Origin: Perna viridis
Lineage: Eukaryota
Assembly (NCBI GenBank): GCA_037379345.1
Contig: CM074511.1
Location: 28,278,862 to 28,342,861, forward strand
DNA: 64,000 nucleotides
Direction of reading: 5' to 3'
Shown here: in pieces, positions 33,143 to 34,759 of the stretch
Layout: every line of letters begins with the position of its first letter
How positions within the stretch are numbered: the stretch's first letter is position 1
Program-made: the position numbers and the translations under genes
Notes under the pieces: model-generated
What the model was told of the DNA's origin: nothing
The model's input: the letters and a program-made list of their open reading frames with translations, nothing else
Database searches by the model: none

Positions 33143-34759
33143 AGCATCAGATTTTTTGGCACCCAAGATGTCAGACGTGTTTTGTTACAGTGTTCTTAAT
33201 GTTTGTGGAATTAGTTAGATTATCAGTTTTGGAATGGATTTTCCAACCGAAATATAGTGATATGATGGATGATGGGCATAGTTACACAAGTAGTAAGTTT
33301 CAGTTGACAAAATACGTATTTATATACAATTGACATTATCGTGATAGCTTCTGCCGTTTTTGATTTGAGGGTCTTGTGGAAAATTTATTTATGAATTCAA
33401 TGTTGAGAGATTAATTTATGTGAAAATGGATTGTCTACCGAAAACATTAACTTCTTTGTTGAAAATTGTAAATGAACAATATACTGATTTTAGCTGGACA
33501 TGTACTGAGCAAAATGGAAGAATGAAAATATCTTTATTGTGGACAAATGGTGATAAATCAACGAAACGGAAATCTAATGCATCTAGAAAACGTGACCGGA
33601 AACGACTGAAGCAATTTGTAGAAAAGAAAAATTCAGAAAATAAAACATCTGAAAGCGAAGATGAATCGTTTATTGAAAGTGATACAGAAAGTGATATTCC
33701 ATCTGAACCCACCGATGCGTTAATGGACGTGATCGACAGTGTTCCGTGTAGCGCCTCATTGACGGTAAATACTAACAAAGGAAAGCAGTCAAGTGAAGAG
33801 AATAACCAATTGCGAACCGAGAGTGTGAAACATGTTAACGGAAATTTAAATGCCGCAGGGAAAATATGTATAAGTGAACATTCGAATACACAGAATATGT
33901 TAACTAAATCTCATGACGTTGTGAATACAGAAAATATTTCGAACACTGAAGAGAAATCAAAATCTCGACAGACACCAGTTCTAGATAAAATTGTTATCAA
34001 AACTTCGTTGAGTATGTGTAGCGCAACACTATTAACGTTGATCCCAATGATTAATTTAATCATGTCCTACTCATTGGGAAAGGAAGAGGACATTCATTAT
34101 TTCGGTCCAGGAACAAAGCGGTACACGTACGCTTTGCACAATATTGAAAACGATTTTGATGATGTTAGGAAAACTAAATACATGAATAGTGATATAGCTA
34201 GTGCAATTGAGAAAATGGAAATTGTTGCCCGCAGGAAAATAGAGACATGGTTAAACTAGGTCTGATTTGATTTTTAAAATGTATGATAAAGTTTGAATGT
34301 ATGGAAAATGTTTTGAAATATTTTTTTTTTACATTTTTTGCATGCCAATGTTTTAAAGCAGTCTGGAATGGATAGCCAGCCGGAATCTTTAATATTTGGA
34401 TATGAAATTGTGTAATGTATTTCAATTACCTTTTCACTTGTTTTCACATTTTACCTAAAATTAAAAAAAAAAAATAAAATAAAAATGTGCATGAATACAG
34501 TGAAAGTGTACAACTGTGATATCGCTTGTGCGTACATGATTGTGAATAAAAATATATTAAATGTATGAATATAAAAATTTTGTAGGTATTGCGAAAATGG
34601 ACAATTGTGGTGACTTTGTTTTCTATGCGTATGTAATTGACATATATGATATAACTAATCAATATGATAATAGTATGTCTATGAGAATATTAATAACAAT
34701 ATCTCTTTGATTTGTAAATGTTTTTCTGTTAATAAAATTTTATCAAGATAAAAAAAAAA
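33143..34759 (+). mobile_element. 1,617-bp non-autonomous protein-coding retroposon, copy 1
   Basis: 15-bp TSD, AATAAA and A10 tail, single ORF without RT/EN motifs, 3' end shared with Tx1-B. Confidence 0.9.
33426..34259 (+). CDS. Orphan 277-aa protein of the 1.6-kb element (ORF track opens at GTG 33420)
   Basis: 834-nt open frame in very AT-rich DNA; basic NLS-like KRKSNASRKRDRKRLK followed by an acidic tract. Confidence 0.8.
   Translation: MDCLPKTLTSLLKIVNEQYTDFSWTCTEQNGRMKISLLWTNGDKSTKRKSNASRKRDRKRLKQFVEKKNSENKTSESEDESFIESDTESDIPSEPTDALMDVIDSVPCSASLTVNTNKGKQSSEENNQLRTESVKHVNGNLNAAGKICISEHSNTQNMLTKSHDVVNTENISNTEEKSKSRQTPVLDKIVIKTSLSMCSATLLTLIPMINLIMSYSLGKEEDIHYFGPGTKRYTYALHNIENDFDDVRKTKYMNSDIASAIEKMEIVARRKIETWLN

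Follow-up and report, generated by a model that had tools for sequence, protein, structure and literature searches.

A protein-coding passenger of Tx1-like LINEs, probably moved in trans, in a tRNA gene array of Perna viridis

The DNA considered here is a stretch of 64,000 nucleotides (nt) from Perna viridis (assembly GCA_037379345.1, contig CM074511.1, positions 28,278,862 to 28,342,861), referred to below as the window. It is a transfer RNA (tRNA) Pro/Val gene array in which 68 intact genes were counted, and our subject is a non-autonomous, protein-coding retroelement of 1617 bp within it (family A, copy 1, 33143-34759, on the plus strand, as are its parts and copies, the interrupted tRNA gene and the LINEs Tx1a at 25324-31911 and Tx1b at 55315-61164 described below). 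The element splits a tRNA-Pro(TGG) gene and is flanked on both sides by a 15-bp target-site duplication (TSD). The interrupted 5′ half of the gene occupies 33107-33142, its last 15 bases (33128-33142) being the left TSD, and the right TSD (34760-34774) together with the 3′ part of the gene occupies 34760-34810. The open reading frame (ORF) at 33426-34259 codes for a protein of 277 amino acids (aa), P0001. The minus strand is closed at this position, with no frame, and an ORF of this length appeared in none of 500 shuffles of the element (31% GC). Towards the 3′ end lies a 53-nt tail (34697-34749) common to Tx1-like long interspersed elements (LINEs), with AATAAA at 34731-34736, followed by a poly(A) tail (34750-34759). 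The first 16 bases (33143-33158) are foreign and replace a canonical head of about 15 nt; 13 of 14 match tRNA-Lys(TTT) just past the D loop. They are likely a carry-over from the flank of the donor copy, for which we searched without finding it. Copy 2 (36537-38153, ORF 36820-37653) differs in its ORF by one nucleotide change, giving E132K, and copy 3 (39931-41544, ORF 40214-41047) by none, the tRNA 3′ part downstream of it being deleted. Both are tandem duplicates, and because all three copies belong to a 3394-bp tandem unit they are not independent, in line with the first-pass annotation of this DNA, which had regarded the three open frames as recent duplicates.

That annotation had also described the protein as modular, with a hydrophobic N-terminal module, a basic tract, an acidic Ser-rich linker and a folded C-terminal region, and both composition and structure prediction bear this out. 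Residues 1-43 are hydrophobic-patterned, residues 44-70 are basic (13 K/R of 27), and residues 71-104 are acidic and Ser-rich (13 D/E and 6 S of 34). AlphaFold2, run on a 44-sequence alignment, predicted a helix-strand-strand unit followed by a basic helix at aa 6-74 (per-residue confidence, pLDDT, about 90), a C-terminal domain of four strands and two helices at aa 185-277 (pLDDT about 95), and a disordered linker between them, with no fixed relative position of the two domains (predicted template-modelling score 0.43). The corresponding coordinates are 33426-33647 for the N domain (aa 1-74), 33648-33977 for the acidic and Ser-rich linker (aa 75-184) and 33978-34256 for the C domain. In the basic helix, K49, S50, R56, D57 and R60 are near-invariant, being kept in 37-40 of 40 homologues, a conservation that seems to exceed the need of a plain nuclear signal. 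The C domain has a conserved K188 and a DF.DVR.T patch, and D246 is present in 44 of 44 sequences.

Searches for a known family or fold were blank. P0001 had no match in Pfam, NCBIfam or PHROGs, and no Pfam family was shared across the 44 homologues (the best was found in 2 of 44, at E 0.007). The 44-sequence profile gave nothing significant against PDB sequences (one match at E=1). The structure searches used the whole model and the N domain. Foldseek returned no match at E≤0.001 against the PDB and viral structures, VIA-align gave nothing significant (best Z 4.7 for the whole model, with a root-mean-square deviation of 4.2 over 81 aligned residues, and 3.4 for the N domain), and the best value in the ESM Atlas was 0.77 for the whole protein, with nothing usable for the C domain. 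Weak rows, among them dsRBD, polo-box, Pur-alpha and the AbrB-like C68/C56, were not followed as leads. A complex prediction with four copies of aa 1-76, made without an alignment, yielded no usable answer (score 0.04, mark 0.32). These blank searches do not establish a new fold.

A search of the 723-Mb genome gave 93 matches. Of these, 34 span the whole length without a stop at 98-100% identity and are spread over 9 contigs; the 30 best matches were read, together with 29 further stretches around weaker ones. The copies represent distinct insertion events. The ORFs of family A are 98.7-100% identical (mean 99.4%), and family A is young and spreads by retrotransposition. Elements are 1.5-1.6 kb long and carry a single ORF, without a reverse transcriptase or an endonuclease and without a Pfam match, and a self-comparison of the window revealed no terminal repeat, direct or inverted. 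Poly(A) is present on all full-length copies and lies 370-500 nt past the stop codon in those examined, with no ORF2. All 20 distinct 3′ junctions of family A (18 by script, 2 by eye) lie in genes of the RNA polymerase III (Pol III) type, comprising 13 tRNA types, U6, 5S and a tRNA-like gene in a U6 array. Of 15 tRNA junctions, 12 had a valid position, always within 22-25; for the other 3, which matched faulty library entries, inspection by eye gave the same place. Insertions into U6 are at +72 and those into 5S at +28. TSDs were found by script in 14 of the 20 junction sets (7-29 bp, mostly 11-16); in the remaining sets the duplication is longer or the 5′ sequence is foreign. At L005, L006, L007, L012 and L094 the 5′ junction shows either a very long apparent duplication or foreign tRNA-Lys sequence, and this pattern suggests carry-over of donor flanks. 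Thus the view of the ORF as the cargo of a retroelement held up, poly(A), TSDs and split multicopy RNA genes all being found at the flanks of the copies. The element is almost certainly a non-autonomous, poly(A)- and TSD-bearing retroelement of Pol III genes.

Several observations concern particular loci. A 3′-truncated family A copy (nt 1-476, coding for the N domain only) occurs at least 16 times in a U6 array (L114-L116, C2 52.20-52.33 Mb). The tRNA-like gene of the U6 repeat (L017, L031, L073, L114) has motifs resembling an A box and a B box and is a target of A, B and Tx1c; neither ARAGORN nor Rfam called it. At L117-L118 (C8 20.29-20.32 Mb), old fragments of family A and of Tx1-like LINEs, 66-82% identical, are densely packed on one strand, possibly as a silencing cluster. 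Comparison of the element with four contig sets gave 8 pieces without splice joints, one of them being the truncated U6-array form with its 5′ UTR (untranslated region) unspliced, although the status of these sources as RNA is a guess.

Two further families provide evidence of selection that the window copies alone could not give. Family B codes for 262 aa and has 7 near-full copies, one with stops; family C codes for 274 aa and has 12 copies, one with a stop. Their proteins are 31-37% identical to that of A and 65-66% identical to each other. Both have a plan like that of A, with a related 5′ head, a 5′ UTR of 250-275 nt, the ORF, a 3′ UTR of 460-500 nt and poly(A), and their junctions also lie in Pol III genes (8 of 8 for B, one by eye; 6 of 6 for C). 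By the Nei-Gojobori method, with one B copy against one C copy, the ratio of non-synonymous to synonymous rates (dN/dS) was 0.24 overall (bootstrap 0.15-0.33), 0.14 in the N domain (0.06-0.30), 0.10 in the C domain (0-0.23) and 0.60 in the weakly constrained linker (0.34-1.16). The low ratios in the folded domains indicate that the protein is under purifying selection. A comparison across diverged copies had been proposed in the first-pass annotation, and between families the ratio is well below 1.

Relatives in other genomes were reached only by profile. P0001 alone as query recovered only itself, and a six-sequence profile recovered 92 clusters at E≤0.001, all of 339 aa or less. The two domains occur together in 37 of these, while 40 have just the N domain and 15 just the C domain; many are fragments. 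Among 20 further representatives looked up, three are named, from Mytilus coruscus (CAC5397724.1), M. edulis (CAG2220056.1) and M. galloprovincialis (VDI49764.1); all three are two-domain proteins annotated as unnamed or hypothetical, which agrees with the likeness to mollusc hypothetical proteins noticed earlier. In VDI07977.1 the same ORF is joined to a GLIS gene model. With an N-domain profile, 46 proteins were recovered, the 32 named ones all from Mytilus and several of them fused with gene models for HEPH, ENAH, TTN, MAO or lectin; these matches are partly circular because the profile was built with N-domain-only sequences, which are themselves tied to the family at E 5e-6 to 8e-4. The N domain also occurs, with other C-terminal parts, in at least three more protein groups (P0115 and P0129-P0157 from Mytilus; P0114, P0142, P0148, P0101 and P0154), and one such group, present in multiple copies in Mytilus, is spliced into numerous host gene models. 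These groups may be other passenger elements. With the Mytilus N-domain-only protein P0115 as query, nothing of it was found in the P. viridis genome, and P0038 as query recovered families A-C only.

Outside these proteins, one of 239 candidates in metagenome contigs was a relative, against none of 141 candidates in viral contigs and none of 51 in prokaryote genomes. The relative, L103, is a contig of 1551 bp whose protein is about 22% identical to P0001; the contig shares the UTR motifs and has AATAAAGAT(A)n at its end. Of 11 two-domain representatives in Logan, 6 come from contigs of 1484-1631 bp, as long as the element itself, which hints weakly that they too are such repeats. The proposal that many host "hypothetical genes" are this element is therefore borne out in part: homologues are many and L103 has the element context, and for the rest the assignment is by extension. 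Homologues thus exist, dN/dS between families is far from 1, and no intron-containing host gene was found among the 93 genome matches. Taken together, the sequence data indicate that the protein belongs to a real, selected and previously unannotated family. It probably functions in the mobilisation of the element itself.

The tail of family A points to the enzyme that moves it. Its pattern had 103 matches in the genome and none for the control, and at matches outside family A, the stretches examined (about 35 of 40) showed L1-group LINEs or their 3′ fragments; one exact tail recurs in 33 loci examined. The commonest tail-sharing LINE, Tx1c, is 5.9 kb long, and its last 53 nt align with those of A (score 61, shuffle maximum 37). 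A close relative, Tx1b, lies full-length in the window at the same tRNA-Pro site (55315-61164), with an ORF1 containing a CCHC knuckle (55579-57123), an ORF2 with endonuclease and reverse transcriptase (57126-61028) and a predicted 3′ stem-loop (61087-61115). Tx1c is 75% identical to Tx1b in ORF2 and 49-65% in ORF1. A second LINE, Tx1a (25324-31911), ends at the same tRNA-Pro site and has an ORF1 split over two frames and an intact ORF2; at 24251-31911 a 5′-truncated Tx1a copy in a tRNA-Val gene lies head-to-tail with this full Tx1a, whose 3′ UTR is about 1.25 kb. By Pfam, the helpers code for an L1-group endonuclease-reverse transcriptase ORF2 and a CCHC-knuckle ORF1; we take them to be Tx1 from their anatomy rather than from a tree. 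The best PDB match of Tx1b ORF2 was human L1 ORF2p (E 4e-81), and the PDB chain LTX, presumably an L1 endonuclease with a Tx1L loop, scored 79 bits against 68 for the native L1 endonuclease.

The target sites agree with this. Of 29 junctions of Tx1c and Tx1b, 28 lie in Pol III genes, and they often coincide to the base with those of A, B or C. The first base of the TSD is at tRNA position 22-25 in the small elements and, in most cases, in the LINEs, and junctions are identical at several targets. The sites are crowded, being used by the small elements and by at least four LINE families. Insertions of the Tx1c/Tx1b LINEs are found in many tRNA types, for the most part at positions 20-25, and in 5S at +28/29 (window 55315-61164; L064, L068, L075-L081, L086, L087, L096, L099, L102); these LINEs appear to form a single lineage whose target rule takes in most Pol III genes. 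In addition, a chimera at L089, bounded by a single 11-bp TSD, consists of a 46-nt head of A and the 3′ 1.7 kb of Tx1c (from nt 4190), joined at TTACAG microhomology; it sits in a tRNA-Leu gene, twice in tandem. It would most simply be explained by a template switch of the Tx1c enzyme onto A RNA, although recombination between DNA copies may also have produced it. The absence of a reverse transcriptase, the shared tail, the shared target sites and the chimera together suggest that A was moved in trans, and its helper is very likely a Tx1-like LINE.

The RNA of the element may be a Pol II transcript. Extra G or GA bases at the 5′ end, AATAAA before the poly(A) and 13-18 runs of four or more T (from +36 on) fit Pol II and not Pol III, and the tRNA-Lys(TTT)-like bases in place of the lost head of the window copy further suggest an internal promoter. 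Each UTR of A, B, C and L103, 5′ and 3′ alike, has a single copy of the motif TGG(N2-10)CCAGCC (8 sites in all; shuffle means ≤0.004), and Tx1a, Tx1b and Tx1c have none. The motif is predicted to fold as a hairpin with a variable loop (spacer 4-10 nt across the 8 sites), and the 5′ site is at +86 to +104 in A, B and C alike. In window copy 1 the two sites are at 33230-33248 and 34364-34381. A hexamer of the 5′ UTR, GTAAGT, resembles a splice donor (33293-33298) and is found in the 5′ UTRs of A, B, C and L103. The predicted 3′ stem-loop of Tx1b is also predicted in Tx1c and Tx1a and is absent from A, B, C and L103. The basic helix of the N domain recalls arginine-rich peptides that bind RNA hairpins.

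Stringent LINEs recognise and need their own 3′ stem-loop RNA (PMC4176376). Since the helpers keep such a stem-loop and the small elements have none, a cis-acting adaptor is favoured, and our preferred reading, to which we give a probability of roughly 45%, is that the protein is an RNA-binding adaptor loading its own RNA onto the helper enzyme. An internal Pol II promoter would produce a capped and polyadenylated RNA, and the protein made from it would bind the twice-repeated TGG...CCAGCC hairpin in cis through its basic helix. The C domain, with its conserved K188 and DF.DVR.T patch, would then recruit the ORF2p (or ORF1p) of the helper in place of the missing stem-loop. The helper endonuclease would nick near the end of the tRNA A box, and reverse transcription would be primed on the poly(A).

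Several results weigh against this reading. The motif was defined after being seen by eye, so the shuffle numbers overstate its significance; the hairpins are modest (-3 to -11 kcal/mol), with pairing that differs between families; and the window copies, 3 of 32 counted, have a one-base variant of the 5′ motif that is complete in other A copies. The dN/dS of A against B or C is 0.34-0.48, near saturation. Within A, 21 alleles from a set pre-chosen for best score contain 12 synonymous and 27 non-synonymous variants (pN/pS 0.59), and many of these variants look neutral. For B, C and L103, none matched seven sampled LINE tails above shuffles and only the short AATAAAGAT(A)n end is shared, so their helper is assigned from target sites alone. 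Moreover, the truncated A copy of the U6 array was primed at an internal A-rich stretch, which means that the tail is not needed at the priming point and also fits a relaxed helper that needs no adaptor.

An alternative is that the protein is the ORF1 of an unrecognised LINE lineage, a general RNA chaperone co-assembling with helper proteins, and that the element is an ORF2-deleted derivative, like HAL1, HeT-A and Ag-Sponge, with a Tx1 tail acquired later. The plan of 5′ UTR, one ORF, tail and poly(A) is that of ORF1-only elements, which also retain their ORF for long (PMC5786205, PMC3627910), and the predicted folded-basic-disordered-folded layout is loosely ORF1-like. However, comparison of the 44-sequence profile with Tx1b and Tx1a ORF1 gave hhalign probabilities of only 0.1-0.2, that is, no similarity, and there was none to the helper ORF2. 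Besides having no Pfam family common to its homologues, the protein contains no CCHC knuckle, RRM or coiled coil. No full-length copy examined has an ORF2 after the ORF, and no copy of the ORF ahead of an ORF2 was found in the P. viridis copies examined or on L103. By blastn, similarity of A to Tx1a, Tx1b and Tx1c is confined to the last ~60 nt, its 5′ UTR showing none to these LINEs. We therefore consider an ORF1 origin unlikely.

The protein might instead be a nuclear regulator that binds TGG...CCAGCC as DNA and activates the promoter of the element or shields it from silencing. The constant place of the 5′ motif in A, B and C would suit this role, and the basic tract could act as a nuclear signal. 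A basic helix beside a small helix-strand-strand module is a common plan of DNA-binding dimers, and the N domain resembles it. But a spacer that varies in length, as the one between TGG and CCAGCC does, is easier to reconcile with an RNA loop than with a DNA site, and one of the two motif copies is in the 3′ UTR. A trans-acting factor would also be easily lost from non-autonomous copies, yet nearly all full-length copies of the three families keep the frame, an argument weakened by the youth of the copies. On balance, a regulatory function is doubtful. It is less probable still that the protein interferes with helper LINEs or rivals, as a defective-interfering or host-favoured brake. The crowding of small elements and LINE families at common Pol III targets and the amplification of the N-domain-only copy in the U6 array could be read in this way, but the element is young and spreads by retrotransposition, and the truncated copies are tandem duplicates of one insertion that may be passengers. 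Finally, a retrocopied host gene or neutral cargo is very improbable and largely refuted here: L1-type enzymes can copy ordinary poly(A) mRNAs (PMC4176376) and the Mytilus relatives are annotated as host genes, but there is no exon-split source gene among the 93 matches, the weak matches examined align to element DNA including UTRs, three families multiply with conserved heads, UTR motifs and tails, and the domains show the low dN/dS given above. Compared with these alternatives, an adaptor that acts on its own RNA remains our preferred reading.

The window has other features as well. A long terminal repeat (LTR) retroelement at 42018-53509 is inserted just upstream of a tRNA-Pro gene; its 1591-bp LTRs are 99.8% identical, and in two ORFs it codes for gag, pol (reverse transcriptase, RNase H, integrase, chromodomain) and an env-like region with a Baculo_F match (E 2.5e-11). 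An internally deleted tRNA-Pro(TGG) copy recurs in array units at 1579, 4466, 5591, 7854, 10741, 13004 and 15891.

We found no description of the element in the literature, a search whose scope left out Repbase, Dfam, subscription papers and supplements, which could already hold it, as could the transposable-element libraries accompanying PMC10294476. Our results describe a young, multi-family passenger of Pol III-targeting LINEs that carries a selected protein family. Known LINE passengers are either non-coding, as in short interspersed elements (SINEs), or cut-down LINEs that keep ORF1. HeT-A, HAL1 and Ag-Sponge are protein-coding non-autonomous LINEs, each with the ORF1p of its own clade (Kojima 2018, PMC5786205), and HAL1 (L1), HeT-A (Jockey) and Ag-Sponge (CR1) resemble the present element in being short, with poly(A), one selected ORF and no reverse transcriptase, and in being moved by LINEs (PMC5786205, PMC5753468, PMC3627910). 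However, they are internal deletions of their own LINE, whereas here the protein and the 5′ UTR are unlike those of the helpers and a tail of about 53 nt is shared in family A only. The element works like these LINEs but lacks their defining features. Similarly, the account of TRE5-A.2 of Dictyostelium describes an ORF2-less, protein-coding element that is mobilised in trans, targets Pol III genes and has an ORF1 that binds TFIIIB in vitro (PMC3159450). TRE5-A.2 is a deletion derivative of TRE5-A.1 and inserts about 50 bp upstream of tRNA genes, whereas the present element inserts inside genes and its protein is unrelated to that of the helper.

SINEs, including SINEU, which is mobilised by Tx1-Mar, are also composite and non-autonomous and share target preference with a Tx1-type helper (PMC4494074). 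The present element differs in its size of 1.5-1.6 kb, its many T runs, its coding capacity and its lack of a small-RNA head, with no Rfam match at E≤1 over 33143-34759. The lack of homology to helper ORFs, the DNA similarity confined to the tail and the missing small-RNA head indicate that it did not arise from its helpers as an ORF1-only derivative and is not a SINE either. A SINE is ruled out by the selected ORF and the absent small-RNA/Pol III head, and a HAL1-type deletion derivative of its helpers by the unlike ORF1 and 5′ UTR. The helpers themselves resemble Tx1L, Keno, Kibi and Koshi of the Tx1 clade in their L1-group endonuclease-reverse transcriptase, knuckle-bearing ORF1 and strong target preference, but each named family has one target type in the account cited, whereas the position entered by the present helpers is fixed across many tRNA types and 5S (PMC4494074). 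Such fixed-position entry into many tRNA types, U6 and 5S is a targeting rule of interest in itself.

An element with such a protein of its own would offer a direct handle on how a foreign RNA overcomes the preference of a LINE for its own RNA, and its size of 1.6 kb suits a standard retrotransposition assay. The family also accounts for a set of "unnamed" Mytilus proteins and likely contaminates gene models labelled GLIS, HEPH, ENAH, TTN and MAO. Tentatively, such elements might form a class of their own, distinct from both SINEs and deleted LINEs: protein-coding satellite retroelements with their own promoter, a piracy protein of a new two-domain family and a private RNA hairpin that hijack Tx1-like LINEs able to enter almost all Pol III gene types at a fixed position, old and widespread in bivalves and the source of many "hypothetical" genes; we hold this wider view at less than even odds. 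More distant parallels are found among DNA transposons. Dada elements, too, are found within tRNA, U6 and 5S genes, often near the A box, but they encode a transposase, use one gene type per family and have no poly(A) (PMC8869645). Fanzor-only elements are, like the present one, non-autonomous and carry a conserved protein unrelated to the mobilising enzyme, but they are DNA transposons with a TnpB-like protein, and no link in sequence or fold was seen (PMC3627910). An element that carries an unrelated, long-conserved protein and moves by the enzyme of a LINE would, if confirmed, be the retrotransposon counterpart of a phage satellite.

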